64,000 nucleotides of DNA from an archaeon (lineage in GTDB: Archaea; Undinarchaeota; Undinarchaeia; Undinarchaeales; JBDRKL01). The notes beneath the pieces were generated by a model, which had not been told where the DNA came from, ran no database searches, and was given only the letters and a program-made list of their open reading frames with translations. Shown here in pieces: positions 11,938 through 59,296 of this stretch; the stretch's first letter is position 1; the number at the start of each line of letters is the position of its first letter. Location of the stretch: NCBI GenBank assembly GCA_043814055.1, contig JBDRKL010000010.1:32001-96000 (forward strand), given 5' to 3'. The position numbers were made by a program, and so were the translations under genes.

Positions 11938-13083
11938 ATGGACATACTCCTGTCGCTTGCAATGCTGCTTTTCGCTGCCAAGATTGGCGGTTTTATCAGC
12001 AAGAAGATAGGTCAGTCAGCGGTCCTTGGGGAAATTGTTGCTGGCGTCATAATAGGGCCGAGCGCCTTCGGTCTCTTCACATATACTGAGTTCTTCAGCA
12101 CGTTCTCTGAGCTGGGCATAGTTTTTCTCATGTTTTTGGTCGGGCTGGAGCTAAACATCAAATCATTTGAGCACTTTTTGAAAAGGGGCGCCCTAATAGC
12201 CCTGGTCGGGGCTTTCCTGCCATACTTAGTTGGGATTGCAGTAGCATCCCTGCTGTTCCATTGGAGCGCCCTGCAGAGCTTTTTGTTTGGGGTCATACTC
12301 ATGGCTTCCAGTGTCACCATAACAGCAGCAATCCTAAGGGATTTGAAGAAATTGAAAAGCCCGATCGGTCTCACGATACTTGACGCGGCAGTTGTTGATG
12401 ACGTGATTGGCATTACTATGCTGACCTTTTTGCTGGCTGTGACAAAAGCGACCACTTTCTCAATAATAGATTTTGGCGGCATAATGCTAAAAGTTCTCGT
12501 ATTCTTCATCGGCGTCTTCCTCGCAGGCCCGCAGCTCGCAAAGTATGTTATTGCGCTAGGGGAGCATCTTGACCTCAGGGTTGAGGAGGGGCATCTCTCA
12601 GTAATAATAATATTAATCCTAACCCTGGCCATACTTGCCAATGCTATCGGGCTCTCCATAGTGGTGGGGGCTTTCCTCGCAGGCATGATTCTGGACAAGA
12701 GGCGCGTAAAAGCAGCCGGCCACGAAATATACAGCATGGCCTATGGGCTGTTCGTCCCTGTGTTCTTCGTGCTTATCGGGAGCTACGTAGTAGTCGGTAC
12801 CCTGTTGAGTAATCTGCCGCTAATATTCTTGATTGTGGCAATAGCAATAATCACAAAGCTGGTGGGCGCCGGGCTAGGTGCCAGGCTCTCCAAGATGAAC
12901 TGGCGCCAATCCCTGATTATCGGCGTCGGGATGATACCCCGCTGTGAGGTCGCTCTCATCCTGGCACTTATGGGCACGACACTCCACATAATAGACACTG
13001 AGATATACTCCGTACTTGTCACTGCAATTGTCTTGACAGCCATAGTAACTCCAATATTGCTCAAGGCGGTCATGAGGGACTAA
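11938..13083 (+). CDS. Cation:proton antiporter (CPA2, NapA/KefB-like)
   Basis: GEIVAGVIIGP, LMFLVGLE, AAVVDD, GAFLAG, GMIPRxEVA; about 12 TM helices. Confidence 0.9.
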   Translation: MDILLSLAMLLFAAKIGGFISKKIGQSAVLGEIVAGVIIGPSAFGLFTYTEFFSTFSELGIVFLMFLVGLELNIKSFEHFLKRGALIALVGAFLPYLVGIAVASLLFHWSALQSFLFGVILMASSVTITAAILRDLKKLKSPIGLTILDAAVVDDVIGITMLTFLLAVTKATTFSIIDFGGIMLKVLVFFIGVFLAGPQLAKYVIALGEHLDLRVEEGHLSVIIILILTLAILANAIGLSIVVGAFLAGMILDKRRVKAAGHEIYSMAYGLFVPVFFVLIGSYVVVGTLLSNLPLIFLIVAIAIITKLVGAGLGARLSKMNWRQSLIIGVGMIPRCEVALILALMGTTLHIIDTEIYSVLVTAIVLTAIVTPILLKAVMRD

Positions 13084-13751
13084 TGGTAAAATGGCATTCA
13101 CTTTCTGAGGACGACACAATTGAAAAAATGAATTCAAGCAAAAGCGGCTTGGACTCAAAAGAAGCAGCCGAGCGGCTCAAGGTATATGACCCAAACCTTC
13201 TTGAGGTCGGCGACAAAGTTCCTGCAGACGCGCGCATAATTGAGCAGAGCAACCTGCACCTTGACGAGGCAATGCTTACAGGCGAGTCAGTGCCGGTATG
13301 CAAGACTGCAAAGGCAATCAATAAAGAAAATGCAATCCTGGTCGAGCGCAAGAACATAGCCCATATGGGCACTGTGGTCACGAACGGCTGCTGCGAAGCC
13401 GTTGTAATCGGCACGGGAATGAAAACAGAGATGGGCAAGATTGCAAAGCTGATACAGGATGTTGAGGAAATGCAGACGCCTCTCCAAGTTAAGCTTCGCG
13501 ACCTTGGAAAACAGCTTGGCATTATAATACTTGGAATCTGCGCGGTTGTGTTCTTCTCAAACAAGTTCCTGCTGCTTGCAATTGCAGTGTCACCAATAGG
13601 CCAAATATTGATACTTTACGTGCCCATGTTCCAGTTGGCATTCCACACAATGGCAATGGGCTTGTACGACTGGCTGCTCATCATAGCTGTTGCAAGCACT
13701 GGCTTCATCTATCTTGAAGCTTATAAAGCAATTAGTCTTAGGAGGAAGTGA
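13083..13751 (+). pseudogene. Internally deleted P-type (Ca2+-like) ATPase remnant, still in frame
   Basis: Retains the Cation_ATPase_N start (GLxSxEAxERL), the actuator (GDKVPAD, LTGES) and the extreme C-terminus (FSNKFL..YVP). No DKTGT, PEGL or GDGxND; only 222 aa. Confidence 0.8.
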
Positions 13752-20569: not shown

Positions 20570-21000
20570 AACTGGTGCTTGACGCCTCGGCGATCATAAA
20601 TGGCTTCAGCGAAGAAGGCGAGCTAATGACCACGCTTGCGGTTTCAAAAGAAATAGGCGACCGAGATATCGGTGAGGTTGTAGTGCGGAACCCTAAAGAG
20701 GAATTCGTGCAAATTGTGGCTGAAAAAGTGAAAGAAAAGAACGACAACCTCTCAGAGCAGGACATCGGACTGCTCGCGCTCGCTCTTGAGTTCAAAGCGC
20801 AAGTAGTCACGGACGACTACGGCATACAGAACATCGCGAAGCTTTTAGGCATCAAGTTTATTCCAATTGCTCAGGAAGGAATCAAGGAAGTTCTCAAATG
20901 GCAATATTACTGCCCAGGGTGCAGAAAGCACTACAAACAAGACGGGGTTTGCGGGGTTTGCGGGACTGGGCTGAAGCGGAGAGCCAAGGAAAGTATATAA
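20566..21000 (+). CDS. nob1: Nob1-like PIN endoribonuclease with Zn ribbon
   Basis: VLDASAII, LSEQD, TDDYGIQN, CPGC..CGVCG. Confidence 0.88.
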   Translation: MKLVLDASAIINGFSEEGELMTTLAVSKEIGDRDIGEVVVRNPKEEFVQIVAEKVKEKNDNLSEQDIGLLALALEFKAQVVTDDYGIQNIAKLLGIKFIPIAQEGIKEVLKWQYYCPGCRKHYKQDGVCGVCGTGLKRRAKESI

Positions 21001-21032
21001 ACAGTGGAGGTCATCTTTTTTTGGGAGCAAGA

Positions 21033-21710
21033 ATGGTCAAACTATGTAGTAATGCGTATGCTGGGTTTTTTCCCAGATTGCTAGGCATTTTAATGCTCTT
21101 TTCCCTGTTATTACAATTGCCGGTTCTAGCAGCTGATTCCCCTGCTGGCACTTCGCTTGAAGCATCCCCGGGCAATACCCTTGATCTTAGCCTTAACTCT
21201 GTGCCATACACCCTAACTATTACAGAAGTTGATGTCAGCTCTGTCACATTGACAATTAGGTCAGAAACTACCAAGATGTTCGTGAAGTTTTTTGACAGCA
21301 TAACGCTGGACATTGATGAGGACTCTGTGAACGACCTGAGCCTTGTGATAGAAAGCACCCAAGACGGCAAATCGCTCCTAAGAATAGAGGAATTAAATCC
21401 CAGTATCACAGAGAGCAGCAGCTTAACCGGCTCTTTAACCCAATTAAGCAGAAAGGCCATAAATACCATCATCAAAAAAGTGGCAGTACCATTACAGGGC
21501 TTGGACACAGAAAGAAGCGAGAGGGTATTAAGTAATGGGCAAGCAGAAGCTGGCGCAGCGCACACCCCAACGGGCATGATATCTTTGCTTGGGCTAGGGT
21601 TGAGCGCAGGCGCAGTAATCGGCGCAGCGCTATTGATAGGGTTGCTGGTAGCGATGAGGGAAAAAAGTTTCAAGGAAACCAGAGAAGGCAGGACGGGGGG
21701 AGTTAAATGA
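21033..21710 (+). CDS. Secreted protein with C-terminal membrane anchor
   Basis: ATG 21033 is the likely start because the ORF-track start overlaps nob1. Signal peptide, beta-rich domain, then PTGMIS + TM helix + basic tail. Confidence 0.7.
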   Translation: MVKLCSNAYAGFFPRLLGILMLFSLLLQLPVLAADSPAGTSLEASPGNTLDLSLNSVPYTLTITEVDVSSVTLTIRSETTKMFVKFFDSITLDIDEDSVNDLSLVIESTQDGKSLLRIEELNPSITESSSLTGSLTQLSRKAINTIIKKVAVPLQGLDTERSERVLSNGQAEAGAAHTPTGMISLLGLGLSAGAVIGAALLIGLLVAMREKSFKETREGRTGGVK

Positions 21711-23893
21711 GGCAGGAAGGCGCGCTACAGGTGCTACTTACGCTAATTGCCCTGATTTTTTTCAGCATGGTGGTTCAAGGCGCTTTTGCAGCTTCTTACA
21801 CTGTTCGGGTTGAGGATGCCGCCCTCACTACTGATGTCTATAAGCAGCCTGGTGACTTTGTTAATATTGTAATATGGGCTTCTTCTTCTGGCTCGGCTTC
21901 GCTCTCATATAACAATGATTTGAAGCTGGTGGGCGGCGATTCCAATAGTGTATCTTTGTCTTTGGGCAGGAATGTACTGAAATTTTATATCCCTGAAGAT
22001 GCGGATACCGGCTTTTATTCCGTGACTGTTGGCTCAACCACTGTGAGCTTTAAAGTCATTACAAATCCTTCGCTGATTATTATTACACACCGCAACAGGC
22101 TTTTTCAGCGGTATGGTCAGAACTCAAACAGCCAGAGCGGCACTGTAATTTCTCTTTTGGCAAAGGCGTATGAAAAGGCCGACGATGGCAACGGCATTGT
22201 GTATGACCTCGGCAATTTTGATTCCATGCCTGAATACCTCTGGAGCTCTTATTCCCAATATTCAGAGGAGCCGCTTTCCCCTGAAGAACTTGACAATTCC
22301 TATGCCGTAAGCGCAGGCATTTTCGTGCAGAGCAGGTGCAAGGCGCCAAACTGCGAGAACGTGCTGGTCCTTGGTGATGACTATGTCGTCCCGTATTACA
22401 GGCGAAGCGTGACAATGACACAGGGCTGGCTGTGGAACCAAGGGGAAGCTACTGAAACAATTTACACAGACCTTTCATATATCCCAACAAAACGCATGTA
22501 CTTTTCTGACCTGGACTCGCTTTTTCCCGGCTCCCAAGTGACGATTGTCACGCCGAGTTATGTAAGTTCCGAGTTGAATAACCAGATTAACGACCTAAAG
22601 AACGATCTTAAGTCAGAATACAATGTGGTTGTTAACATCAAGAGTTCTTACAACCTTGCCTGCAATTCCTACCTTGAACTTGGCGGCACGTTGGTTACAA
22701 AAAACCTGATTCTGATAGGTAATGCTGACAACAACAGGGCAATCGCCTGCCTGCCATGGGTTGAGAGCGGGGAGTCAACGATTTCAATCGAGCGGAACGT
22801 GTGGGGCAACAAGGGCAGTGCGATTGTCTTGGAGACCGACGGAAAAAGGCTGGACAGCATCCTAACGCTGAGGAAGCTGATGGCAGAGCAGGACAAAGAT
22901 GAGTTTGATTTTGGGAGTGCTGTTGTTGCATGTTTATGGGACGGAAAGTTTGAGGGCGAGCACCCGATGATGCAGGAAGTCAGCTGCAATATGATTCCCA
23001 TTGTCGAGCTTGCACCAGACTTCAGGGACTCAATAAAGTGCCTGCTGGAGTCTGAAAAAACAACCATTGATGAGTTTGTCTGTAAAGTAAACCACTTTGC
23101 AACCTTTTATGATCTTGCCGGATATGGGGCTGCTTTCGTCAGTTTTGGCGCTGGCGGGGTGGCTGCCGAGGTCGGAGATACTGGCGTTTCTGTCTTGAAG
23201 GTTGGCTTGAAGAACGCCGCAGAGGGAATTAATGACCCCAAGGTTTTGAAAGCTGCGGCTGATTCTTTCGATGGGTTGTCAATAACAAAGAAGGTTAAGC
23301 ATACTAGTAGCCTGGCGGATATTGTGTACAAGAACCCTGCGAAGTATGAGGAACTAACCGAATCTTGGATTAAAATAATTTCCAAAGGGGACGGTGTCAC
23401 GACCACCACTTTTAAGGCAATTGATATTGACGTAGTGGATGTTAAGCATTTGATGCCGGACAAGTTCGCTGATTACGCAGAGGGCGTGAAAATTGCAGGC
23501 TATGCCGATCCTTTGACAGACGGCGCAGGGGTTCATAAAGTGGTGAAGGCATTTAATGCTCCCGGAGTAGTCACGAATGTCATTGATCCGGGCTCTGTCG
23601 TTGTTAAACAGATAGATGGGATGGCGATACTGAAACAAGGAGAGCATATAGGACCTAACAGTGGGTTTGGCCAGGTGCATATGGTGAAAGAAGGTCATTA
23701 TGACCAAATTAAAAATGCGTTTGGCCTTGCGGATAATAACAAGGCAGTGGATGAATTCATCCAGGAGGGGTTGGAGAAAGGGACGAAGTCAGGTAATACG
23801 ATCACTTGGGATGTACCCAACAATGAACACAATCTGAAAATCATTTTAAGTGACACGTCTCCCGGCAGCATTCAAATAGCTCGTCCCGATTAA
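21707..23893 (+). CDS. Secreted putative polymorphic toxin (N-half C25-like domain, S-layer-like domain, pre-toxin helices, C-terminal BECR-like nuclease)
   Basis: Signal peptide; VLVLGDDYVVP..IYTDLSY; NLILIG..NN; MIPIVELAPDFRD; Gly/Ala-rich helices; C-terminal LKQG..GFGQVHM..H..F..GSIQIARP. Confidence 0.6.
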   Translation: MRQEGALQVLLTLIALIFFSMVVQGAFAASYTVRVEDAALTTDVYKQPGDFVNIVIWASSSGSASLSYNNDLKLVGGDSNSVSLSLGRNVLKFYIPEDADTGFYSVTVGSTTVSFKVITNPSLIIITHRNRLFQRYGQNSNSQSGTVISLLAKAYEKADDGNGIVYDLGNFDSMPEYLWSSYSQYSEEPLSPEELDNSYAVSAGIFVQSRCKAPNCENVLVLGDDYVVPYYRRSVTMTQGWLWNQGEATETIYTDLSYIPTKRMYFSDLDSLFPGSQVTIVTPSYVSSELNNQINDLKNDLKSEYNVVVNIKSSYNLACNSYLELGGTLVTKNLILIGNADNNRAIACLPWVESGESTISIERNVWGNKGSAIVLETDGKRLDSILTLRKLMAEQDKDEFDFGSAVVACLWDGKFEGEHPMMQEVSCNMIPIVELAPDFRDSIKCLLESEKTTIDEFVCKVNHFATFYDLAGYGAAFVSFGAGGVAAEVGDTGVSVLKVGLKNAAEGINDPKVLKAAADSFDGLSITKKVKHTSSLADIVYKNPAKYEELTESWIKIISKGDGVTTTTFKAIDIDVVDVKHLMPDKFADYAEGVKIAGYADPLTDGAGVHKVVKAFNAPGVVTNVIDPGSVVVKQIDGMAILKQGEHIGPNSGFGQVHMVKEGHYDQIKNAFGLADNNKAVDEFIQEGLEKGTKSGNTITWDVPNNEHNLKIILSDTSPGSIQIARPD

Positions 23894-23906
23894 GCCTTAG
23901 CAATCC

Positions 23907-24377
23907 ATGAAAAACACATACAACACTCAAATATTGGATATAATTCCTTCGACAGTAGATGAAGGGAAAGGGCGGATTATAGATGGTTATGTAAAATTAA
24001 AAATAAATGACATTGAATTTTGGGCTTTTGCTTTAGAGGATTGGAGAACAGGCAAATGGTCTCTGTCTATGAAGGGCTCCAATTTATCATTAAAACTTAG
24101 TTTTTTGAATCTAAACATACAAGCATCTGAAAAAAAGATTAAACAAATAGTTCCAATACCAAATCAGAAAAAACCCTGTGATTACATAATTTATGGCGAA
24201 GTTGTTGATAAAGTGCCTTCGTCAAAACTTCCTGATAAATATGAGCGACTTCAGGTTGGATGTGGCTTTGTAGTAGGTGGTGTCAGTGTAGCTAAGAATC
24301 AATTCAAAATCGGCGACTACATCCAGGCAGAAGGCCGCTTGGACGCTTACCGCGTGAAGGAGGCAGATGAACTCTAA
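23907..24377 (+). CDS. Putative immunity protein (cytoplasmic, beta-rich, AT-rich gene)
   Basis: Small gene without signal peptide directly after the toxin-like C-terminus; markedly AT-rich; ends GDYIxAEGRLD. Confidence 0.55.
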   Translation: MKNTYNTQILDIIPSTVDEGKGRIIDGYVKLKINDIEFWAFALEDWRTGKWSLSMKGSNLSLKLSFLNLNIQASEKKIKQIVPIPNQKKPCDYIIYGEVVDKVPSSKLPDKYERLQVGCGFVVGGVSVAKNQFKIGDYIQAEGRLDAYRVKEADEL

Positions 24378-27300
24378 CCTAAAACCCCCACTGCTCGCAG
24401 CACTTATCATAGCCCTGCTCTTGGTAGTCCCAGCTCTTGCACTTGAGCCTGACTATGAGTCCGCTGCAGTTGGCCGCATTGTCGGCGACACCGCAACGGA
24501 GATGGCATCTGTGCTGGACTCAGGCGATTTCTCCTTCCAGCACGCCACATTTTACTCAAATAACGGTCTGCCTTACTCGCCTGCCATGGACACAAAATAT
24601 GTCCTTGGCGCGTATTTCCCCTCCCAGCTCACGTCCCAAATAAACGGCTGGAGCTGGTCTGACGTCAGCAGCAGCATGTCCTCGTGGAAGAATAACGAAA
24701 TGTTCATTGTTGAGGCGGACAGCATGTTCAGCAGTGGCGACTTAAAGGTTAAGGACAGCCCCTATTATGGAACTTCTTACTTAGAGGCCTCAGATGTTTC
24801 TGGCTGGAAGTCCAGTTTTAGCGCAAAAGACCCTTTGTTTGTGTTTGATGCTGAATACGCAGGCCTGTACCTGCCAAAGAGCTTTGACTCAACGGACTCT
24901 TTTGTTGGTCAGCTTGGCCAGGACTCCAGCATAATTGCCCCAACTGCTGTGCCAAGCGATGAGTTTGTCAAGTCCCTGGTGTGCTCCATGTATTATTCTG
25001 ACGGTTCTCTTGGGACTGCTTTCAGGGACGCAAGGAATTCCTACTATAGGAATGCTGAGAACTATGGGGAGCTGCCTGGCCTGTCCCTGATGTCCTATGA
25101 GCTGTACGGCGACCCAAGCGCCTCATTTTCCATGCCAGGGTCGCCAAGCCCGTCTGCAGTTGACCAGTATTGTTACCCCTACACAGAGGGCGGCACAGTA
25201 AACGTGCCAATGGAGATTGATATTACCAAGAAAGGCGCTGTAGCTGATGACGAGGTCTGGAAGGTCCAGCTGAGCGTTGGCAACATAAAAAATCTCAGGG
25301 TCAAGCTAAGCTGGGCGCAGACCAATGCAAACCTTGACCTGACTTTAGTTGACCCGAATGGCAAATCTTATTCCCCTAGTTCTACAGGCTCCTCAAACGA
25401 GGAAGTCACTGTATGGAACTTCGCCAGTAACCTGCGAAACAAGCCTTGGATAGTAAAGGTAACAGGGACAAATGTCCCGAGCAGCATTGGTTATGCAAAG
25501 TTTGATGTTCTAGCCACTTCTCCTTCTGATGAATCAGGCGGCGGGGGTGGTGGAGGCGGAGGTGGCGGCGGAGGCGGTGCAGGTGGCGTAAATCTCACAT
25601 CCATAAGCCTCAATTACCTCTCAGCGTGCTCCCCTGAAAATGGTCTGACTTTTGTAATCAAGGGGACAAAGGCAGGCGAGGGGGATGAAATCATAGTAAA
25701 CCCGGACCAGGCAGCAGGGGAAGCCTTGAAGTATTTCAAGACCGGTCTTGTGATACCAAATTATGCGCAGTGGATTACAATGGACTTCAAGCCAGGGCAC
25801 TTGGACTGGGACAACTGCGGAACTGTTGAAAGAGTTGACCCTATCTTCAGGCAGACTGAGGTCGCCCGCGTCATGTTCGACGCCGACGTGAAATTAAAGT
25901 TTGATGAGTTCGGCTCTGTTTCCGAGACTCTCCAAAAAGAGATGCGGCAGTATTGGATTGATGACATACAAGCAGGGCCGTATTGGAGCGAACTGTCTGC
26001 CAAAGGCTTCAATGAATTCCCTGATTACAAAAGGCGCGCATATATTCATCCAGCGGCATTTGAGGTAAATGGAAGCGGCTGTAATATATTCATATCCGAG
26101 GCAAAGATGAATGTAACGCATGTGTTTGACTGGGTTGTCCTGGATACTGCGAGATATAGCCTAAGCCCTGAGGTACAGGCCTATTTGGACCAGCGCCTTG
26201 AGAACTGGGAAAATGTTTTCCAGATGCGGCAGGAAACTGAGCTTGTTTCCAAGCATCTTGAGTCATTAAACAACGATCCAAAGTATGCAGAAATGAGGCG
26301 GGTCTACACCGCATTGGCGCTTGTACAATGGTACAAACAACAGGACAGGAGCAAGATACCATTTGGAGATATCATTGACTCAAACAACATAAGCGGCTTG
26401 GAGTCAGACCCCCTATTTGACCAGAGCTATTGGGATGCGCAGGCTTGTCAATTCATGTTCACGACTCCAATGCCATGCGGCTTCTATGGCGGAACCTGCA
26501 ACTGGGACTTCGGCGGAGGGGTCTCTCTTGGCTCTGTCCCGCCGGACGTGCTCGGCGAGCTTGACGGGCAGATAAGTGAGCTGATGTCAGAGGCAATCAC
26601 TGCGCCGTATGTGCAGGAGGGGAACGATTATTATTTTGGCGGGGAGATTGTGGCAAACGAGCCTGACCTAAAGCCTGTTGGCATGGGCTTTTCCGAGCTA
26701 TCTCCTGCCACGCAGGAAACCATCAACATAACTGCGGATCTAGCCAATACAGGGCGCACTGGTTCAGCCGGATTCACAGCAAGGTTCTATGACAAGTACA
26801 CGTATCCAAATGGTCATGTGGCTGCGTATTTGATTGGGGATGCTAGCGCTCCGCCGCTTGATGCAGGCGCTTCTGAAGCAGTATCAGTCAGCTGGAGCAC
26901 CGGGGATCTCCTGGGTACACATGAAATTTACGTGAAGGTAGACTACAATGGCGAGGTTGATGAATCCAATGAGCTGAACAACCTGTTAATCAAGGAACTT
27001 GCTGTGGTTGACCCTAACCCAACAGCAATGATAATGTATCCTAAAAACGGGGCTGGTTTTTCACAAGGGAGCATTGTGGCTTTATCTGGCATAGGAAGTG
27101 ATGAGCAGGACGGTTTCCTCCCAGAGTCCTCAATTGGGTGGAGCTCAAGCATTGATGGTGGGCTGGGCACAGGATTCCGCCTGGAGCTTTCCAACTTGTC
27201 AGCAGGAACTCATACTATAACCCTGACTGTAACTGACAGCACGGGATTGCGGGATTCAAAGCAGGTGGCATTAACTATCTACAAGCCTGATTATCCCCGG

Positions 27301-30300
27301 GTTTTATTGAGCTCGCCAACAGAAGGGCAGAAGTTTGCAGAGGGTGAGCTAGTATATTTCACTGGCTCTGCTTTTGACCCTGAGGACGGCGTACTGCCTG
27401 ATTCTTCACTTGCCTGGAGCTCCAGCATTGATGGCGAATTAGGAACGGGAAAATCAATAATGAGTACAGGCCTGTCAGTTGGTACTCACATCATAACTCT
27501 CTCAGCCACGGACAGTAGCAGCTTAACATCAACTGCTAACACCAGCATAGTGGTAGAGGAAGGCAGCCCGGTTGCAAGCATTGCCTCTCCTGCGAGCGGC
27601 AACAAGTACTTTCAGGAGAAAGACATATCATTCAACGGCTCTGGCTCTGACCTGCAGGACGGCTCACTGCCAGGAAGCTCCCTTTCATGGTTATCCAGTA
27701 GTGACGGATATCTTGGTCTGGGAGCTACAATCTCCAAAGCTCTGACAAGCGGCACGCATGTAATCACACTCACTGCCACTGACAGCCACGGCCTTACTGG
27801 CACAAGCCAGGCAACCATCGAGGTGCTCCCGCCTGGCTACGCATACTCCTCTATAATGTCGCCGCGCAGCGGACAGGAGTTCATACATGGAAGCACTATA
27901 ACATTCACAGCAAGCGGAGAGGGTGCGCAGGGGTCTTTACCAAGTTCTGCATTCGCATGGTCCTCAAGCATTGACGGCGCGATTGGAACAGGCAATTCAT
28001 TTAATTTTGACTCAACCACCCTGAGCGTGGGAGAGCATGAGATAACGCTCACGGTCAACAGCAGTGGCGGACTGGTTAGCGCGCTGAAGACTGACATAAA
28101 TATAACCCCTGCGCCGCCGGTCGCAAGCATTGTATCGCCATCAGCCGGTCAGGCATTTGCTGCAGGCGAAGATACCATATTATTCAACGGGTCAGCAGTT
28201 GACCTAGAAGACGGCGTTCTTGGCGGGGATTCACTCGTATGGTCCTCAAGCATTGAGGGGGGAATTGGGACCGGCGCCTTGTTCAACAGGACTAACCTGT
28301 CCGTAGGGACGCACAAAATAACGCTCACAGCCACTGACAGCGATGGAAAACAAGGCACCGCAGAAGCCAATGTTGTTGTGGTTGGAATTGGTGAAGCAAC
28401 GCTAATCATATTCTCCGACGGCTCTGCAGTGAAGAACTTTACATTCTCATCAGCTGGGAGCCAGGTCGCTTCTTTGAAGATCCCGAAAGAGGGGGATGTA
28501 ACTTATGCAACAGTGCAGATTGAGGGCAAAACTGCTGGGGGCTATTATGGCGGAGGGAGCCCCAACTTAGTTTCTTACTTTAAATTTGAGGAGAGCTCTG
28601 GGCAAACCGCAATTGACAGCAGCACCTACCAGAATCATGGGCAGCTTGGATCTACAAATGGGACAGATTCCAGCGATCCAACTCGGGTAAACGGTCTTAT
28701 TGGAAAAGCGCTGGAATTTGACAGGTCTGATGATTTCGTCAGTGTGCCTGATGATGACTCACTTGATTTCGGGACAGGAAGCTTTACTGTAGAGTTCTGG
28801 ATGAAGCACAATACAATTGTCAGGTCCAGCGAAGCCGGGGACGAGGAGTATGCAGTCATCAAGATGAATTTCGGCAACCACGAGGGCTTTTATATCAGGA
28901 TGGACCCGTACCAAAGCACAGCAGGTCAATTGGTTTTTCGAGTCAGGGATACCATACCCAGTACCACAGATCTCCATTCTCAGGTAGCACTTGACGACAA
29001 TAAGTGGCATTATATCGCCTGTGTCAAAAATGGCACTTCATCACAGAAGATATACGTGGACGGGGTGGAGAAAGCCTCAGGTACGCCACCGGCTGGCAGC
29101 ACATCCCACAATCAGGATTTGTTCATCGGAAGCAGCCTCCAAGCCAACAGGGTTTGGGGTGGAATTATTGATGAGGTCCGCATATCTAATGTAGCCCTGA
29201 GCGCTTCTGAGATTAGCGGGCATTATGCCCATGCTGTAAATTGGATTGGCTACTGGAATTTTGACGAGGGGAGCGGACAAATCGTGGGAGACAAGAGCAA
29301 CAACAATCATAATGGAATGCTGGGGGCTTCAGAGAATATTGATAACGATGATCCTTTATGGGTGGGTGGGATTTCAGAAAGTGCATTGGAATTCGACGGA
29401 AACAATGATATTGCTAAAATTTCAGCCGGAACCTGGGATGATTTTGGCAGCAATAGTTTTACAGTAGGATTCTGGGCAAAAACAAACGAATTATTTACAG
29501 ACAGTATACATCTCTTGGTCCATAATATGCAGTATTCAGGGGGTCCAAATGCCCTTGGCTGGGACATTGGCATCCTAAAGAATGGGAGCGTGCTTTTGGA
29601 TATCCGTGATGGGCACGACGAAGCCCAGGCGTATTCAAATTCAGTGATCAGTGATGGGACATGGCATTATATTGTTGGCGTTCGAGATGGGTCTTCTATA
29701 AAAATATATATTGATGGGAAAAAAGAAGCCACATCGGATTGTTCCAATGTAGACTCAACCAGCAATAGTGACCCCATAAGAATAGGGGGCAGATACCCGT
29801 CTGAAAGCTATTACTTCTATAAAGGTGCTATAGACGAAGTTATGCTTTGGGACTATGCGCTTTCTGATGTGGAAATCCAAGAGCTATATCCTGGCTCCTC
29901 TTTATCATACCCGTTAAACCCCAGCCTGGACGCTGGCTCGGACGGCAATTCTGAGTGGAGCTATGCAGGAGCTTTTGGTGCAAAGGAAACAACGCAGGAC
30001 TTTCATAGCGAACTGAACGAGCACCTGCTGGCGTGCACGCCTGTAAACAACATGTGTACAATCCCACTAAAAGTGTCTTCCAAATCGGCAGGCATCCTGG
30101 AGCTTTCCAACATCAGTATCCAATATTCTATAGTAGACAAGTATCCGCCTGTAATCCACAGCATAGTCATCATACAGAACACCTACAAGCCAGGCGAGCT
30201 GCTAAAGATTAAGGCCAATGTGTCAGACAACGTTGAAGTGCAGCGGGTTGAGACGGCGCTCAGCAATTCAATAGTACAATTGGCTTATAATGAGGTGACT

Positions 30301-33300
30301 GGGCTGTATGAGGGCAACATGACCGCGCCGCAAAGCGGAAATTACATTGCCAACATAACTGCATTTGACTCTGTCGGGCTGAGCAGCCAGGCCAATATTT
30401 CCATAGAGATAAACTCAGTTAAGCCGGACCTGAGCATAAGCCCGGGCGATATCGTGTACGCGCCGGCTGAGCCAAAGGACGGCAGTATTGTTGTTGTAAA
30501 TGCCACGATTTACAACTTCGGCGAGACTGCAGCAAATAACTTTGGGCTGGAGCTGCTCATTGACGGGGTTTCAAGCGAGGCAAAAATTATTTCAGTCCCA
30601 GCAATGTCTGCCACGATGGTGCAATTTGAGTGGGCTGCTGCCTACGGTCAGCACGAAGTTAAAGTGCGCGCTGACTACACCAATGCCCTAGATGAGTGGG
30701 ATGAGTCAAATAATGAGGCTGGGTTCACCTTAACTGTGATAGACGCTGTGCCTCCAACAATACACAGCATATCGGTTGAGCCTATGATAGTGCATGAGGG
30801 GGACATTGTCTATGTCAGTGCCAATGTTACTGACAACGTTGAAGTGAAGCAGGTCAAGGCAGAAGTTGGCACTGCCAGCAAGGTACTTATGTATAACAAC
30901 GAGTCTGGGCTATATGAGGGCACGATAACAGCGCCTTTTAAGGGATTCTACCATGTCGTGGTTACTGCAACTGACAGGGATGGCCTGGTAAGCTCCAGGC
31001 AGGCAGGGCTCAATGTGAATAGCAATAAGATAGACCTTGTAGTGGGCACTGCTGACATCGCCTTCCTCCCAGCAAGCCCGAGAGATGGTGAGTTTGTTAA
31101 TATTAAGGCGACCATCCACAATACTGGTGCTGCAGACGCAGACAACTTTATAGCAGAGTTCCTGGTTGATGGCAATTCGCATGAAACTGTCAATGTTTCT
31201 GTTCCAGCAAAATCCCAGGCACTGGCAGAATTCACCTGGGTTGCCAGCTATGGCACGCACACGCTTTCAATCAATGCAGATTCAGAAAATATCATTGCAG
31301 AGGTTAATGAAACCAATAACCTGGCTGGGAAGGTTCTGCTGGTTCCGGATACTATTCCGCCGACAATAGAGAGCATAACCAATAGCCCCGAAATAGTCCA
31401 CGAGAGCAACCTTGTCACAATAGAAGCTGTTGTTACAGATAACCGCGGCATAGATGTGGTAATTGCAGAATTAAATGGTGCAAACATAAGTCTTTCGCCT
31501 GATTCAGGCGCATATACAGGTGTGCTAACCGCTCCTGCTGAAGGGAAATATAACGTCAAGGTAACTGCTTTTGATGACAGCAGCTTGTCCAGCACGCGGC
31601 AGGAGCCGCTTGCTGTGCATAGCATTAAGCCGGATATCCAGATAAGAGAGGAAAATGTCACCTTTGTCCCAGAGAATCCTGTTGATGAGTCTGTGCTGAG
31701 GATAAGCGTTGTGCTGTATAACACAGGTGCAAGCAGCACGGGCAGTTTTGAGGCAGGGCTTATTATAGATAACAAGGCAGTGCAAAGCAATACTATTTCA
31801 GTGGAAGCAGGTTCTAATGTGAGCACAGAATTTTCTTGGAATGCCACTTATGGCAACCACACCCTGAAGATAAAGGCAGACACCAAGAATGATGTAGCTG
31901 AGATAAATGAGTCAAATAACGAGTACACAAAAGAACTATTTATCCCTGACATTACCCCGCCGGACTCTCCAGTGGTTAGCGCAGACCCCAGCAGCTGGGC
32001 CGCAGACAGCACGCACAAAATATCCTGGGGCAAGATACAAGACCGCAACGGCATAGACCGCTATGAGTACCAGATTGATTATGGTGAGTGGCATAGTGTC
32101 GGGGCTTCTGATAGTTTCAAGACACCAGAGCAGGCAGAGGGAATCCATACTATTTATGTCAGGGCAGTTGATGGGGCCGGCTTGGCCGGCAAGCCCGGGA
32201 ATACCAGCATTTACATAGACCAGAGCGCGCCAAACACACCTGTTACAAAGGAATGGCACAGCGGGAAAAGCTGGAGCGCACACGATACGCCCTATTACGC
32301 TTGGTCTGACCCAGGGGATTTAGGAAGCGGAGTAGCCAGCTATTTGGTAAGTGTTGACAACCAAACGCCAGTCAGCGTAGGGAATACGTCCTACCACCCA
32401 ACATTAGGAACCGGTATGCATACTTTCAAAGTCAAGGCAGTTGATGCGCTTGGGCATGAAAGCGCTTGGTCTGATATAATAACAGTTTATATAGACACAA
32501 CATCACCGAGGGTACTAGATGTGGGCTCTCCAACCCACCCGGATCAAGAAACAGTCTACATGGATAATATGCCTTACTTCAATTGGACTGAACCAAGTGA
32601 CAACTCAGGAATTTATGGCTATTACTATCTTATAGACAATCTTGAGGGCACAATCCCAACTGAACTGTACTCCTGGGCTCCTGAACCTTTTGTAAACTTT
32701 ACAGGATTTGGCAATCAGGTATATTCAGGCGCAACAAAGAAAGAGATGGGCTTGCCTGATGGCACATGGTACTTCCATGTAAGGGCAATAGACGTGGTTG
32801 GAAATCTTGGGGCAGCCACTCACTACAAGGTAAACATCCTGACGAACGACCCGCCTGAGATTACTTTGTTGCAGCCAAATGGCGGTGAAATGTGGAGTGG
32901 GGTGAAAGAGATAGCTTGGAACGCTTCTGACCCTGATGGTAATTTGCTTGAGTTTAGCGTTTCATACAGCACGGATGGGCTCGTTTATACCGAGATTGGT
33001 AACACAACTGAATTAAGTTATGGGTGGGACACTTCCACAGTAGAGGATATAGACACCTACACGATAAAAGTCGTTGCGAGCGATGGCAATGCAACTAGCG
33101 AAGACACTTCCGATATAAACTTCCTGATAGACAACACCAAGCCGGAAACAACAGACAATCACGACGAAGCGTGGCACACCCAGGAGGTAACAATAGAACT
33201 GGATGCAAACGATTCTTTCTCTGGTATTGCCGATACCTATTACATCATATACCAGGATGAAACGCCGCAGGAAACAAAGACAGTTAGCAGTGATGGCCAG

Positions 33301-34050
33301 CCGGTTGTGTCTTATGAGGATGATGACAACTGGGTTGAGTACTGGAGCATGGACAAAGCAGGGAACGAAGAGGGGCACAAGTTCGCCAAGAATATCAAAC
33401 TCGACAAAACCGCACCCAGCGTGAACATCTGGCTCGACCCAGCTCAAGAAGAGTACCCGAACACAGAACCACTCCCAGTACAACACTCAGCAACAGACCC
33501 GCAAGTCCAAGGCACGCCAAGCGGCATCGTGCAGACAACCTTTGACATAGACAGCACTCAGATTGAAGACCCAGCGAACATCTACAACTGGCTCGGAACA
33601 CACACAATAACACTGACAGCGACAGACATCGCAGGGAACATCAACGCTGCGCAGGTAGGATTCAACGTATACCTGCAGCTAATTGGCGAGGGACAAATAA
33701 AAATAACGCCAGAAGTTCTGAAAGTCAACCCAGGACTTCTAACCGCGCACACAACATTCCCAGAACCATACACAGGAGCTGAAATACTCAGCGCAACCTG
33801 CGACTACGCCACACACGACCAAATCGCAGACACGAACATCAAATTCAGACGCGAGGATGTTGAAACGGCGCTTGCTACGCGGGGAGAGGTACTTGACACA
33901 CACTTTGAAGTAGAAGGAACATTTGAGCACAATGACAATGTCTACAAGTTCAAGGGAAGCGATGATATAAGTAAAATAGTCAGTGCGGAAGAAACTGAGA
34001 CTGGAGAAATAGCCAGTGAAGAAGGAATAGGGGAAGAGGCGATACAATAG
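24367..34050 (+). CDS. Giant secreted surface protein (C-half C25-like, PPC-like, poly-Gly, 4x CARDB, 5x PKD/Ig, 2x LamG, Ig/Fn3-like)
   Basis: Signal peptide; AVGRI..YELYGDP; LSW..NLDLTLVDPNG; PDL...ExNExNN x4; WxSSxDGxxGxG..GxHxITLT x5; LamG motifs (ALEFD, WHYI, IDEV). Confidence 0.85.
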   Translation: MNSNLKPPLLAALIIALLLVVPALALEPDYESAAVGRIVGDTATEMASVLDSGDFSFQHATFYSNNGLPYSPAMDTKYVLGAYFPSQLTSQINGWSWSDVSSSMSSWKNNEMFIVEADSMFSSGDLKVKDSPYYGTSYLEASDVSGWKSSFSAKDPLFVFDAEYAGLYLPKSFDSTDSFVGQLGQDSSIIAPTAVPSDEFVKSLVCSMYYSDGSLGTAFRDARNSYYRNAENYGELPGLSLMSYELYGDPSASFSMPGSPSPSAVDQYCYPYTEGGTVNVPMEIDITKKGAVADDEVWKVQLSVGNIKNLRVKLSWAQTNANLDLTLVDPNGKSYSPSSTGSSNEEVTVWNFASNLRNKPWIVKVTGTNVPSSIGYAKFDVLATSPSDESGGGGGGGGGGGGGGAGGVNLTSISLNYLSACSPENGLTFVIKGTKAGEGDEIIVNPDQAAGEALKYFKTGLVIPNYAQWITMDFKPGHLDWDNCGTVERVDPIFRQTEVARVMFDADVKLKFDEFGSVSETLQKEMRQYWIDDIQAGPYWSELSAKGFNEFPDYKRRAYIHPAAFEVNGSGCNIFISEAKMNVTHVFDWVVLDTARYSLSPEVQAYLDQRLENWENVFQMRQETELVSKHLESLNNDPKYAEMRRVYTALALVQWYKQQDRSKIPFGDIIDSNNISGLESDPLFDQSYWDAQACQFMFTTPMPCGFYGGTCNWDFGGGVSLGSVPPDVLGELDGQISELMSEAITAPYVQEGNDYYFGGEIVANEPDLKPVGMGFSELSPATQETINITADLANTGRTGSAGFTARFYDKYTYPNGHVAAYLIGDASAPPLDAGASEAVSVSWSTGDLLGTHEIYVKVDYNGEVDESNELNNLLIKELAVVDPNPTAMIMYPKNGAGFSQGSIVALSGIGSDEQDGFLPESSIGWSSSIDGGLGTGFRLELSNLSAGTHTITLTVTDSTGLRDSKQVALTIYKPDYPRVLLSSPTEGQKFAEGELVYFTGSAFDPEDGVLPDSSLAWSSSIDGELGTGKSIMSTGLSVGTHIITLSATDSSSLTSTANTSIVVEEGSPVASIASPASGNKYFQEKDISFNGSGSDLQDGSLPGSSLSWLSSSDGYLGLGATISKALTSGTHVITLTATDSHGLTGTSQATIEVLPPGYAYSSIMSPRSGQEFIHGSTITFTASGEGAQGSLPSSAFAWSSSIDGAIGTGNSFNFDSTTLSVGEHEITLTVNSSGGLVSALKTDINITPAPPVASIVSPSAGQAFAAGEDTILFNGSAVDLEDGVLGGDSLVWSSSIEGGIGTGALFNRTNLSVGTHKITLTATDSDGKQGTAEANVVVVGIGEATLIIFSDGSAVKNFTFSSAGSQVASLKIPKEGDVTYATVQIEGKTAGGYYGGGSPNLVSYFKFEESSGQTAIDSSTYQNHGQLGSTNGTDSSDPTRVNGLIGKALEFDRSDDFVSVPDDDSLDFGTGSFTVEFWMKHNTIVRSSEAGDEEYAVIKMNFGNHEGFYIRMDPYQSTAGQLVFRVRDTIPSTTDLHSQVALDDNKWHYIACVKNGTSSQKIYVDGVEKASGTPPAGSTSHNQDLFIGSSLQANRVWGGIIDEVRISNVALSASEISGHYAHAVNWIGYWNFDEGSGQIVGDKSNNNHNGMLGASENIDNDDPLWVGGISESALEFDGNNDIAKISAGTWDDFGSNSFTVGFWAKTNELFTDSIHLLVHNMQYSGGPNALGWDIGILKNGSVLLDIRDGHDEAQAYSNSVISDGTWHYIVGVRDGSSIKIYIDGKKEATSDCSNVDSTSNSDPIRIGGRYPSESYYFYKGAIDEVMLWDYALSDVEIQELYPGSSLSYPLNPSLDAGSDGNSEWSYAGAFGAKETTQDFHSELNEHLLACTPVNNMCTIPLKVSSKSAGILELSNISIQYSIVDKYPPVIHSIVIIQNTYKPGELLKIKANVSDNVEVQRVETALSNSIVQLAYNEVTGLYEGNMTAPQSGNYIANITAFDSVGLSSQANISIEINSVKPDLSISPGDIVYAPAEPKDGSIVVVNATIYNFGETAANNFGLELLIDGVSSEAKIISVPAMSATMVQFEWAAAYGQHEVKVRADYTNALDEWDESNNEAGFTLTVIDAVPPTIHSISVEPMIVHEGDIVYVSANVTDNVEVKQVKAEVGTASKVLMYNNESGLYEGTITAPFKGFYHVVVTATDRDGLVSSRQAGLNVNSNKIDLVVGTADIAFLPASPRDGEFVNIKATIHNTGAADADNFIAEFLVDGNSHETVNVSVPAKSQALAEFTWVASYGTHTLSINADSENIIAEVNETNNLAGKVLLVPDTIPPTIESITNSPEIVHESNLVTIEAVVTDNRGIDVVIAELNGANISLSPDSGAYTGVLTAPAEGKYNVKVTAFDDSSLSSTRQEPLAVHSIKPDIQIREENVTFVPENPVDESVLRISVVLYNTGASSTGSFEAGLIIDNKAVQSNTISVEAGSNVSTEFSWNATYGNHTLKIKADTKNDVAEINESNNEYTKELFIPDITPPDSPVVSADPSSWAADSTHKISWGKIQDRNGIDRYEYQIDYGEWHSVGASDSFKTPEQAEGIHTIYVRAVDGAGLAGKPGNTSIYIDQSAPNTPVTKEWHSGKSWSAHDTPYYAWSDPGDLGSGVASYLVSVDNQTPVSVGNTSYHPTLGTGMHTFKVKAVDALGHESAWSDIITVYIDTTSPRVLDVGSPTHPDQETVYMDNMPYFNWTEPSDNSGIYGYYYLIDNLEGTIPTELYSWAPEPFVNFTGFGNQVYSGATKKEMGLPDGTWYFHVRAIDVVGNLGAATHYKVNILTNDPPEITLLQPNGGEMWSGVKEIAWNASDPDGNLLEFSVSYSTDGLVYTEIGNTTELSYGWDTSTVEDIDTYTIKVVASDGNATSEDTSDINFLIDNTKPETTDNHDEAWHTQEVTIELDANDSFSGIADTYYIIYQDETPQETKTVSSDGQPVVSYEDDDNWVEYWSMDKAGNEEGHKFAKNIKLDKTAPSVNIWLDPAQEEYPNTEPLPVQHSATDPQVQGTPSGIVQTTFDIDSTQIEDPANIYNWLGTHTITLTATDIAGNINAAQVGFNVYLQLIGEGQIKITPEVLKVNPGLLTAHTTFPEPYTGAEILSATCDYATHDQIADTNIKFRREDVETALATRGEVLDTHFEVEGTFEHNDNVYKFKGSDDISKIVSAEETETGEIASEEGIGEEAIQ

Positions 34051-34173: not shown

Positions 34174-37100
34174 ATGGCTTTAAAATCTCAGCTTAAATCT
34201 AGATTTCTTATAATCTCCATTATTTTTTTCCTGCTCTTCGGGGCTGTGGCGGTTTTTGCAGTTTATACCCCAACACCATCCGCGCCAATGCTTTGCACTC
34301 CTGATGTTGCGCACGACAAAGTAAGTTGCAGGGTTGGCGGAGACGGCAACAGGGACCCGTCTTTCTCCTGGCGCGACGGAATAAACATAGACCCAGTCAG
34401 CCAGTATTGGTCTGGGGACAACCCTGGCATGCGAATTGTTGGCCTTGATATTCCAAACAAATGCAAGATAGACCTCAGAATAGAAGGCATTTTGTGCAAC
34501 CGGCTAGACCCTTTTCCCTCATTTGAAGTGCACAAGGAGGGCACAGTCAGCGGTAATGCGTGCTTTATGGACATGGTTGACTTGCCTTTTGGGGTGGGTG
34601 GGATTTGGAACGGGTGCACAGACGTTAATGCCCCGCCTTTTGTTAACGGGGGAGTGACCTATTATTATGAAGAGCCAGCACCAGTATGCAATGATGAGTG
34701 CAGTACAGGCCAATATTCCTGTAATGGCAGTGCGCGAATTGAGTGCGGCAACTTTGACGGGGATTCCTGTCTTGAGTGGGGCAATAAGATTGATTGTGAG
34801 TATGGATGTGCGCTTGGGGTTTGCGAAGAGCCAGAACCCTTATTATATAATATTTCAGAAAAGCTTTATTTCCAGGCAGAGCCTTATCTGGAAAATACCT
34901 ATGTTAATATGGAAGATGAGTGGCAAAAAATAAGCCTCTCTCAATACCAGAAGGTCACCGCCACCGAGCCGTCATTTTTCTTTATGCAGGTTGATGAGAA
35001 CACACGAACCTTTGCGTATGATTATCCCTCTGCTTCTCTGGGTGTAAGCGACAGCTGGGCTGAGCGAAAAGCGAAAATATACGTTGAGCATCCAAAGGGC
35101 TATTCTATGAGTGGAGCATCGGTTTACACAAGCATACCTGTTAGCGATACTATTTCAATATGTGTTGGTAACGCGGTCAATGACAAGATAAACAACCTGC
35201 CAATAGAAGTTTTTGAGACACTTGGCAAAAAAGCCATTGAAGAAGCAGCCAAAGAAGGGGTTATCTGGGCTTCAGGAGTTGGCATACTCCTCGAGTCAAA
35301 GAAAGCGATGGATGTTGCAAAATTTGTTGCCTGTACTCAGGAAGATGAGAATAATTATGTTTATATTGGCACGACAAACGAGGACGGCTATGCAGAGGTC
35401 TGGCTTAGGGAAGGTCAGGATACAGAGATGATGGCTCGTTGGTATGATCTTAACACGCTCTACGGCGGGGTTTCTGTTGTGAATCAATACGGATTCCAGG
35501 GCTCAAAGAACGTGAAAATTGAAGAATGGATGGGTGGAGTTCCTGAATTCACGATAAGCACAAAGGGCAAGGCGCGTGTAATAACTATTCGCGACGAGAC
35601 TCAGAAGGATATCGACGAAGAGTTAGAGCAAATTTCCAGCTTCTTTGAGAACGAATACGGCATTGAAGTGAATCACTGGACTGCTGATGACTGGGCTTAC
35701 GCTCCAAAACCGCCTGTTGGCGGGGATGGTACTGACTTGAAAATTTACCTTGCACGCCTGGATTCCCTGCCTGGTGGTTCGCCAAATAATATTGGAGTGA
35801 ACTTCCAGAACTACAATCCAACCCTAGTTTATGAGGGTGTTGCGTGGCAGGTTTTTGATGGCACTAATTGGTATGAAGGTGATGTTTTTGGACTGGTTGC
35901 TGCCGAATCAAGCTTAAAGAAATTTTTAATAGCTGGCCTTGGTAAAAACGGATTTGAAACTGCTGTTGACGCATTCACATCAAAAGAAATGAACAAGGTC
36001 GTCAAGTGGACAGATCCTGTGCAATATGAAACTCTCAAATCGCACGTTTATCAGATTAAAGGCGCAAGCACAGTAGATATCTGGGAAGCAAAAGTTTGTA
36101 TTTCAGGCCCTAAAGACGATTGCAAAAACACAAACTCAAATGGAATTGCAGATTTTGGAAAAGTTCCAACAGGAACTTACACAATCAGTGTTGAAAAGAA
36201 AGGTTATTCAGTTGATTCAACAACTCCTTCTCCACGCCAAGTTGATTTAAACAGCCCAGGCTCAACCCAGTGGGTGAACTTTGGGATGACTGCTAACGAG
36301 TGGAATTACGAAATGCCAGAAGAAGTCCGAGTAAGTGAGCGATTCTATGTATACACCAACTTCACAAACGTGGGTGACGAGCTTGTTGAGTTCTCCTACA
36401 GCACAGAGCTTCGCGGCGCAAAGTTCACGCGGCTTATGCTTCAAGGAACAACAGTCTTCCTTGCTCCTGGAAATTCAGAGCGCGCCCGATGGGAATTCAG
36501 CGCAGACCAGGAAGGCGAAGGAACGCTATGGATAATCAAGGGCAATCAGGAAATAAATACAGGCAAGAAAATCAAGGTCGGTCCACTGCCTGATTTGGTT
36601 GCTTACATCCAGAAAATAGATGTGTGGGACTACGGCGGGCGAGTGGGGACTGATTTCCAGGTGAGTGTGGAGGTTAGGAACCGGGAGAACTACTCCGTCA
36701 ACATTACAGTTGAAATGGTAAACAAGAGCAATAACGCTGTTCTCGAAAAACATAGTTTGATACAGGTGCCCTATGGGTGGAGCATATACGGTTTTCAGGT
36801 TTGGCGCGAGGCAAATCCAGTTGATTACGTGTTCAATGTACGGTATGACGGCGCGGTAATTGACAGCAAGGACTTTACAGCTCAGGCAGGCACACAGGTT
36901 AATGTGCCTCCTGCGCCAACCAGCATAGGAGGCGGCTCTCCAAGCGTTAGAAGCCCAGCGCCTGCGAACTTGCCAGCAGATGCACCAATCGCAGGTGATA
37001 GCTCAAGTGGATCTCAAAACGCACTGCCTTCAATGCCACGCAATATCCAGCAAGATACATTTTCTACACCTGCTCAAAATGGGCCAACTGGAATGATTTC

Positions 37101-59251: not shown

Positions 59252-59296
59252 AGTATTATCGCAACCTAATTAAAGCACTTAAATCATAAATTAATT

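Follow-up and report, generated by a model that had tools for sequence, protein, structure and literature searches.

Within a 64,000-nucleotide stretch of contig JBDRKL010000010.1 from an archaeon of the Undinarchaeales (hereafter the window), we analysed two neighbouring genes that encode a secreted protein of 728 amino acids (aa), P0001, and a giant surface protein, P0002. We propose, with a probability of about 0.5, that P0001 is a polymorphic-toxin-type protein docked on the giant adhesin P0002 via complementation of a catalytically dead peptidase C25 (gingipain-type) fold, parts of which are carried by each chain. The genes and the regions of their products that bear on this proposal are as follows.

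21707-23893, + strand: P0001, an open reading frame (ORF) of 728 aa
21707..21790, + strand: P0001 signal peptide (aa 1-28), with a hydrophobic peak and a helix at 2-26 in the model
21797..22057, + strand: P0001 Ig-like beta-sandwich (aa 31-117), with a predicted local distance difference test (pLDDT) score of ~95 and Ig-like matches at Z 8-9
22061..22492, + strand: P0001 alpha/beta unit (aa 119-262), a putative counterpart of the C25 N-terminal (A) subdomain, which contains VLVLGDDYVVP and TDLSY and forms the main predicted interface
22358..22381, + strand: P0001 strand NVLVLGDD (aa 218-225), the predicted acceptor edge for the partner strand
22493..22900, + strand: P0001 flavodoxin-like domain (aa 263-398), best match 9fsa_A
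22910..23422, + strand: P0001 helical 'pre-toxin' region (aa 402-572), with conserved Cys and, at ~466-490, a moderately hydrophobic helix rich in Gly and Ala
23423..23890, + strand: P0001 variable C-terminal domain (aa 573-728), a candidate toxin, polymorphic across the family
23907-24377, + strand: P0003, an ORF of 156 aa between P0001 and P0002
24367-34050, + strand: P0002, an ORF of 3227 aa
24367..24441, + strand: P0002 signal peptide (aa 1-25)
24442..25182, + strand: P0002 N-terminal domain (aa 26-272), in the predicted model a complete, catalytically dead gingipain-type caspase fold
24463..24483, + strand: P0002 N-terminal strand AAVGRIV (aa 33-39), the predicted donated strand in the co-fold
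25183..34050, + strand: P0002 stalk, comprising a Gly-rich linker, four CARDB, Big_7, PKD, two Laminin_G_3 and OmpL47-type domains

The original prediction had held that P0001 and P0002 carry complementary halves of a C25 domain with lost catalytic positions, which would reassemble outside the cell and load an exchangeable toxin onto an adhesin stalk. All six motifs that it quoted are present where it had placed them: VLVLGDDYVVP at aa 219 (nucleotide (nt) 22361) and IYTDLSY at aa 252 (22460) of P0001, and EPDYESAAVGRIVGD at aa 27 (24445), PLFVFDAEYAG at aa 156 (24832), SLGTAF at aa 214 (25006) and YELYGDP at aa 244 (25096) of P0002. We judge the resemblance to C25 to exceed chance, given the gingipain matches of P0002, the C25-rich though sub-bar Atlas rows of P0001 and the strong conservation of both motif blocks in their families.

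The P0002 N-terminal domain was modelled with AlphaFold2 from 15 sequences, giving a fold over residues 28-270 with pLDDT mostly 70-92. Among solved structures, residues 25-259 matched gingipain RgpB best (4ief_D; Z 16.4, root-mean-square deviation (rmsd) 3.1, 212 residues aligned); RgpB 1cvr (Z 15.9, rmsd 3.2, 214 aligned, chain range 100-351) and Kgp (Z 14.6-14.7) were also matched. Outside the gingipains, the matches were to the CHAT protease (Z 14.8, 176 aligned), separases (~13.5), legumains (~12.5) and then metacaspases, and Foldseek agreed with the gingipain-first ranking. These alignments indicate a whole caspase-type subdomain rather than half of one, and in the model the part of the C25 domain assigned to P0002 is clearly a gingipain-type caspase fold.

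One correction to the original prediction concerns the break, which does not cut the caspase-like fold through its middle. P0002 holds the whole caspase-like subdomain plus one N-terminal strand, and P0001 misses essentially that strand (P0002 33-39) and the B subdomain. The notion of complementary C25 halves stands for the C-terminal half, whose fold matches gingipains; for the N-terminal half the resemblance is at the level of a lead.

The supposed loss of the catalytic positions was confirmed. P0002 has neither the HG dipeptide nor the Cys at the expected places, EADS standing at the HG position. Across its family the nucleophile motif reads FD(S/A)(D/E)(Y/F)(A/G)G, with the Cys absent from 16 of 16 aligned members, while HG is retained at the His position in 5 of the 16 N-domains. 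The motif around the N-terminal strand is conserved: E31, R37, V39 and G40 of P0002 are invariant in 15 sequences, and the motif xE(S/T)xxV(G/S/A)RIVG occurs within a few residues after the signal peptide in 15 of 16 aligned proteins and in 16 of 17 in the set used for locus distances. The exceptions are an ORF whose N-terminus was not called and another whose called start is over-long.

The P0001 model was built from 58 sequences and reached a mean pLDDT of 71, with high confidence over the alpha/beta region 123-395 (pLDDT >90 at 120-170), lower confidence at 402-572 and a poorly modelled C-terminal end. Residues 119-262 comprise strands 123-127, 163-167 and 218-221 with helices between them, plus a hairpin, an order that we take to be that of the gingipain A subdomain. 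Conservation reaches 90% or more at G223, D225 and P229 in the 58 sequences. When P0001 was compared with 119 C25 domains using hhalign, a helix and VLVLGDDYVVP fell on the equivalent C25 segment at a weak P = 0.028; the hhalign P-values overall were 0.015-0.028. Of 10 structural rows in the ESM Atlas for residues 119-265, 7 were clusters rich in PF01364 (TM-score by query 0.55-0.58, ~115 aligned), all under the tool's bar, and the feature 'Peptidase family C25' scored 0.89, likewise below it. With the whole P0001 model, Foldseek returned multi-domain, high-rmsd matches only. We regard the modelled resemblance of P0001 119-265 to the N-terminal part of C25 as a lead, and the claim for this half, although probable, is less firm than that for the half in P0002.

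We next consider how the two parts are predicted to fit together. P0001 119-400 and P0002 26-272 were co-folded in three runs, alongside three controls. The interface score (ipSAE) was 0.93 in 3/3 runs and 0.00 in the best of the 3 controls; 58 of 80 solved complexes attain the mark applied, compared with 2 of 110 mismatched pairs. The runs gave 185-198 contacts with a partner pLDDT of 91, and at least 96% of contacts agreed between them. The tightest predicted contacts join P0001 218-225 (NVLVLGDD) to P0002 33-39 (AAVGRIV) by inter-chain strand pairing with an error of 0.3-0.5 Å, and further P0001 contacts lie at 122-161, 182-190, 250-264 and 319-371. The predicted complex has the confident interface that had been anticipated for the two fragments. 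Since halves of a known fold can score through likeness to solved single-chain gingipains, we read this result as C25-style complementarity and not as binding.

The predicted interface is more conserved than the remainder of each protein, with means of 0.40 versus 0.32 in the P0001 family (p = 0.003) and 0.65 versus 0.52 in the N-domain family (p = 0.001). The motifs at the break point are among the invariant or near-invariant columns in both families. This pattern fits an interface that would be in use.

We take the conserved Gly-Arg strand of P0002 to correspond to the last strand of the gingipain A subdomain, a placement reportedly made by Eichinger et al. in 1999. If so, P0002 would donate a strand to the P0001 sheet and bring the B subdomain along with it. 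In the mechanism that we envisage, P0001 and P0002 would be exported separately, and outside the cell the free P0002 strand (aa 33-39) would join the P0001 edge strand (aa 218-225). The mature N-terminus of P0002 would then supply one beta-strand together with the whole caspase-like subdomain, and the two subdomains would pack like an intact C25 domain. The resulting pseudo-protease would act as a non-covalent connector that hangs the toxin module at the base of the adhesin. We infer the binding of P0001 to P0002, the toxicity of the P0001 C-terminus, its neutralisation by P0003 and the route of the toxin to its target.

Relatives of the module are found in metagenome-assembled genomes of DPANN archaea (Aenigmatarchaeota, Micrarchaeota, Woesearchaeota and Nanoarchaeota), in which the order P0001-like gene, small variable ORF, P0002-like gene recurs. 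A word-indexed search returned just 3 relatives of P0001; an exhaustive profile search returned 197 proteins at E ≤ 1e-3, including 121 at E ≤ 1e-30. The original prediction expected homologous loci to keep both genes together, and they do. A genome scan with the N-domain identified 8 loci, and in 7/7 with enough upstream DNA a P0001 homologue lies just upstream on the same strand (E 1e-8 to 7e-53); in the eighth genome it is on a separate contig.

The linkage was also assessed in 301 genomes from the phylum of locus L009, among them two unpublished genomes (G308 and G309). The N-domain and the P0001 core were each found in 18 genomes and occurred together in 17, so that 17 of the 19 genomes with either gene have both. 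In 13 of the 17 pairs, contig, strand and order are shared and the core stands 1.2-9 kb upstream of the N-domain. The remaining four pairs are split between contigs with the core match close to a contig edge, and in both single-gene genomes the gene is at or near a contig end. Leaving out G308 and G309, the counts were 16 (N-domain), 17 (core) and 16 (both), with contig, strand and order shared in 12 of 16. Distances between the two domains across 17 loci were correlated (Mantel r = 0.69; 0 of 5000 permutations as high), as expected for linked genes, and showing that the two travel together.

In the window the two subdomain-like parts are not on one polypeptide: each is encoded by an ORF with a signal peptide of its own, and a further gene stands between the two ORFs. 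When the family was searched for a fused form, 0 of 154 P0001-family proteins matched the N-domain hidden Markov model within its N-domain part, the model being over-long and its matches falling at repeat positions 670-865. PF01364 was found in 5 of 61 related genomes, and given this rarity we reject a local duplication of a common gene as the origin of the split form. The host genome does encode a normal single-chain C25 peptidase (G000:C4:137806-138957, locus L001; 178 bits, in a 1050-aa protein) with its His and Cys motifs in place. In pairwise BLAST, this true C25 domain gave nothing significant against either fragment (E 0.34-0.35, two-sequence database).

We then examined the P0001 family for signs of toxin character. 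The family core corresponds to about P0001 30-410 (to ~520 in many members), usually with 400-2100 aa ahead of it and a tail of 200-450 aa behind. In 128 proteins, the 150 aa after the core, which form the helical part, fell into 6 BLAST clusters (sizes 86, 36, 3, 1, 1 and 1), and the last 150 aa fell into 36 clusters, 20 of them singletons. An earlier single-linkage clustering of undivided tails had placed 122 of 128 in one cluster and suggested no polymorphism, a result overturned by splitting the tails into their first and last 150 aa. The end of P0001 is common to 15 other proteins, and its closest relative, P0006 (51% identity), has a different C-terminal cluster. Four of 19 locus tails carry a Scabin-like ADP-ribosyltransferase (ART) domain at the C-terminal end above the 27-bit cut-off (34.7, 34.9, 28.4 and 32.8 bits), and Pertussis_S1 exceeds its own cut-off in one of the 19. 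One relative matched an RTX N-terminal family weakly (22.1 bits; cut-off 26.8), a match that we set aside and that did not recur in 74 whole-scanned family proteins.

Small ORFs accompany these tails. In 17 of 19 loci, one or more same-strand ORFs of 130-290 aa lie between the two large genes (none in L017 and L019). Tails and small ORFs co-vary: in L020, L021 and L022 the tails are 38-47% identical and the small ORFs 28-39% identical, and both the tail and the small ORF of L005 are similar to those of L016 and L023. Outside these two groups the small ORFs are unique. P0003, the corresponding ORF in the window, has no signal peptide or transmembrane (TM) segment and no relative in Pfam, NCBIfam or the PDB; it is presumably a cytoplasmic cognate partner, an immunity protein of P0001. 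In L026 (2595-20001, genome G364), the main gene is accompanied by two short paralogues (575 and 536 aa) with their own signal peptides and a small ORF after each. Together with further small ORFs, this array separates the main toxin-type gene from the giant gene and resembles the orphan toxin/immunity cassette arrays of bacteria.

Judged from these sequences, the anatomy of the P0001 family is that of a polymorphic toxin-immunity system, a concept said to go back to Zhang et al. in 2012. The exchangeable toxin foreseen by the original prediction is supported at the level of the family by the 36 tail clusters, the ART domains of 4 of the 19 loci and the co-variation of small ORFs with tails; the tail of P0001 itself matches no known toxin family.

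Long members of the family display a further feature at their N-termini. A subtilase domain (Peptidase_S8) is present in 11 of 18, often followed by MopE-type metal-binding motifs and CARDB; the subtilase-bearing forms include P0020, P0022, P0028, P0038, P0041, P0046, P0057, P0100, P0102 and P0106.

The core itself is divided in some members. It is full in 99 of 151 proteins; 25 of the 151 are short forms that open with a signal peptide and then enter the core at the second half of the A-like unit. In L017 (1027-10502, genome G075), the first half of that unit closes a 1636-aa protein. Its second half stands at the start of the product of the next gene, a 691-aa protein that has its own signal peptide and carries the tail; an N-domain giant follows. 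Read from its genes, this locus would be a three-way split of the C25-like fold that is hard to explain without reassembly of the pieces.

A broader extension of our proposal, to which we hold tentatively, is that DPANN archaea possess a plug-and-play extracellular assembly with dead C25 pieces as connectors. An exchangeable toxin cassette protein would join giant surface proteins, often bearing a subtilase, to giant adhesins, and would supply or accept the missing strands, with a three-way split in some genomes (L017). This would amount to contact-dependent archaeal toxin delivery by fold complementation without a dedicated secretion machine.

Several results weigh against docking of a toxin through a dead C25 fold. 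At the sequence level, PF01364, the Pfam check suggested in the original prediction, gave 14.6-15.2 bits on the P0002 N-terminus against a gathering cut-off of 23, covering profile positions 312-372 of 374 only (4 of 8 N-domain relatives matched, equally weakly), and found no match in P0001 or 5 relatives (0/6); it is the structure comparison that gives a gingipain fold for P0002. Searches of PDB sequences by phmmer and profiles, with the P0002 N-terminus, P0001 and the family alignments, returned no C25 or gingipain entry, the matches being Gly-linker or other artefacts. For P0001, the hhalign P-values for C25 likeness are weak, the Atlas rows are under the bar, and the matches listed in a VIA-wide search of solved structures covered residues 28-120 and 263-394 only. 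Part of the co-fold score may stem from single-chain gingipain folds that the model has memorised. P0001 and P0002 both lack a membrane anchor. With regard to toxicity, no Pfam toxin family was matched at E ≤ 1e-3 in 74 whole-scanned family proteins (0/56 + 0/18) or by the C-terminus of P0001, and the Atlas leads for the P0001 tail (Ntox35, PBECR1, EndoU and LXG toxin; BECR/EndoU-type nucleases) all scored <0.9. Finally, within the phylum of the host the module is present in 1 of 17 genomes, the host alone, as a single copy, and is absent from the other 16, which indicates a patchy distribution.

The interpretation is nonetheless supported computationally, none of the refuting outcomes named in the original prediction having occurred: P0002 gave a caspase-like structural match, the two fragments gave a predicted interface, and homologous loci keep the two halves together.

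The same observations can be read differently. One alternative, which we consider unlikely, keeps the docking and drops the toxin: P0001 would here serve as a structural or base subunit, organising or anchoring the adhesin perhaps by way of its flavodoxin-like domain, and the tail and P0003 would have another role, such as in specificity or assembly. According to the original prediction, P0001 switches to other domains behind its C25-like motifs, and what comes next is indeed this domain, followed by the helical region. Residues 263-393 match best the Methanococcus voltae S-layer anchor/dimerisation domain (9fsa_A; Z 12.7, rmsd 2.7 Å, 120 of 135 aligned, 14% identity), which is described as dimerising the anchor (PMC11410804). 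A base subunit would also accord with the lack of an anchor at the P0002 C-terminus, with the P0001 tail matching no toxin family and with the subtilase N-termini of 11 of 18 long members, which point to large surface proteins in their own right. The flavodoxin-like arrangement is common, however, the next matches being BcsB (Z 11.0) and the N-domains of GH115 (~Z 10), and P0001 has no TM helix after this domain, or any TM segment beyond the signal peptide. The helix at 466-490 was ruled out as a TM anchor (Kyte-Doolittle ~1.0). Polymorphic C-termini on a conserved scaffold, bona fide ART domains in 4 of 19 loci and the co-variation of tails with small ORFs likewise argue against a purely structural role.

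It is also improbable, in our view, that the two C25-like pieces are left over from an old gene fission, or from the insertion of a toxin cassette into one giant surface-protein gene, that they no longer interact and that their genes stay adjacent only through co-transcription. Such an origin would accord with the very low sequence similarity to C25, with a co-fold score that could be memory of the ancestral single-chain fold, and with the ability of each piece to be modelled well alone (P0001 120-170 at pLDDT >90; P0002 40-230 mostly at 70-92). Relics would be expected to decay, yet the strand motifs at the break point are among the most conserved positions in both families, and in the 16 homologues whose N-terminus was called, the N-domain stands directly behind the signal peptide. 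Gene order and pairing are kept across several DPANN phyla, and the second split of the A-like unit in L017, with its new signal peptide, fits a connector in use.

We give very little credence to the idea that an active peptidase or transpeptidase arises on docking and cuts the toxin free, as the releasing peptidases of bacterial polymorphic toxins are reported by Zhang et al. to do: the caspase/C25 fold is a protease fold and 5 of 16 N-domains keep HG, but the nucleophile Cys is missing in 16/16, P0002 also lacks the His, and the catalytic residues of gingipains all lie in the B subdomain, so that an added A part would not supply them.

Toxin docking by complementation of a dead C25 fold can be set beside several known systems. 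With peptidase C25 itself (the Porphyromonas gingipains RgpB and Kgp; PF01364), the pair shares the caspase-like subdomain in P0002 25-259 (Z 14.6-16.4), the hhhGDxxxVP and (S/T)DxxY motifs and, at the level of a lead, the secondary-structure order of the N-terminal subdomain in P0001 119-262, and, in the predicted complex, a strand pairing that joins the parts as in one C25 domain. In contrast to C25, the fold is spread over two separately secreted chains, the catalytic Cys (16/16) and, in P0002, His are missing, Pfam scores stay below the cut-off, and a flavodoxin-like domain stands behind the A-like part in P0001. For that domain, the superposition on the M. voltae S-layer anchor (PDB 9FSA) is likewise close in fold and different in context.

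The bacterial polymorphic toxins (CdiA-CT/CdiI, Rhs, LXG and MafB) share with the P0001 module a conserved core with variable C-termini, ART domains in some members, a co-varying small downstream gene and, in L026, a cassette array. The P0001 module differs in being archaeal (DPANN), in having the putatively toxin-bearing protein separate from the fibre and predicted to dock at the N-terminus of the giant P0002, and in that no dedicated secretion system is evident. Modules are loaded non-covalently on large scaffolds by cohesin and dockerin in cellulosomes and by donor-strand complementation in chaperone-usher pili. The resemblance to these lies in extracellular attachment to a scaffold, here by a predicted beta-strand supplied to the partner's sheet; the differences lie in the C25 pseudo-peptidase fold, the lineage, the lack of a chaperone or usher and the toxin-type cargo.

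In those parts of the literature on DPANN with C25, gingipains or polymorphic toxins that were covered, with supplements outside the search, no description of split-C25 loading was found, and the consulted part of one article mentions archaeal polymorphic toxins in general terms only (PMC6393860). The most likely reading is that of a polymorphic toxin system in which loading relies on a device not described in the literature covered.

The module sits in a tightly packed run of + strand genes in the order P0004, P0001, P0003, P0002 and P0005 (20898-37182). The two outer genes are as follows.

20898..21710, + strand: P0004, 270 aa, its stop sharing 4 nt with the P0001 start
34174-37182, + strand: P0005, 1002 aa, a surface protein downstream of P0002

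Ends overlap for P0004/P0001 and P0003/P0002, and the gap between P0001 and P0003 is 13 nt; operon structure was judged from such overlapping or near-abutting ends alone. P0004 has a hydrophobic segment near its N-terminus and a C-terminal 'PTGMIS' with a TM helix, and is a possible membrane-anchored operon member. P0005 has a second 'PTGMIS' and a hydrophobic C-terminus. Both were ruled out as conserved parts of the module, no homologues being found in L003-L010. PTGMIS with its hydrophobic tail (window 21567-21583 in P0004 and 37084-37100 in P0005) thus occurs in both genes that flank the module; the back-translated pattern has 2 matches in the 0.98-Mb genome, both here, and its reversed control has 0. 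This tail may serve as a sorting or anchor signal at the C-terminus that is specific to the lineage. Within P0002, a run of ~15 glycines (window 25520-25570, aa ~388-405) separates the N-terminal domains from the remainder and gave spurious PDB matches to the linkers of single-chain variable fragments.

The host genome (0.98 Mb) is 82% complete, and the genes around the module are archaeal housekeeping genes (aRF1, ValRS, MetRS and ThyX). Other observations in the window concern genes outside the module. A 222-aa ORF (13083-13751, + strand) matches N-terminal, E1-E2 and C-terminal parts of P-type cation ATPases; as it is much shorter than a full pump, it may be a fragment or a minimal form. 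A 168-aa protein (46000-46506, + strand) matches Arrestin_N (E 2.9e-8). On the − strand, 48766-49926 encodes an S-adenosylmethionine synthetase of the bacterial/eukaryotic MetK type with three S-AdoMet_synt domains, although the genome is archaeal, and 54804-56987 encodes a methionyl-tRNA synthetase with a B3_4 domain at its C-terminus. Four ORFs without Pfam families (719, 221, 338 and 314 aa) followed by a HerA/DUF87 ATPase occupy 57092-63541 on the + strand and could form a secretion, pilus or defence module.

For the most part, the giant surface proteins of DPANN archaea, which live attached to other microbes, lack annotation. How these archaea hold, manipulate or kill their hosts or rivals is, to our knowledge, largely unexplained. 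If the proposed connector is real, DPANN archaea would gain a recognisable polymorphic-toxin system with ADP-ribosyltransferases among its cargo, and in the pair nature would have converted a protease fold into a docking device made of two pieces. Two small domains that are expected to bind each other would offer a testable handle on the proteins of these uncultured organisms, and a naturally split, self-assembling domain pair may serve as a protein-ligation tag.

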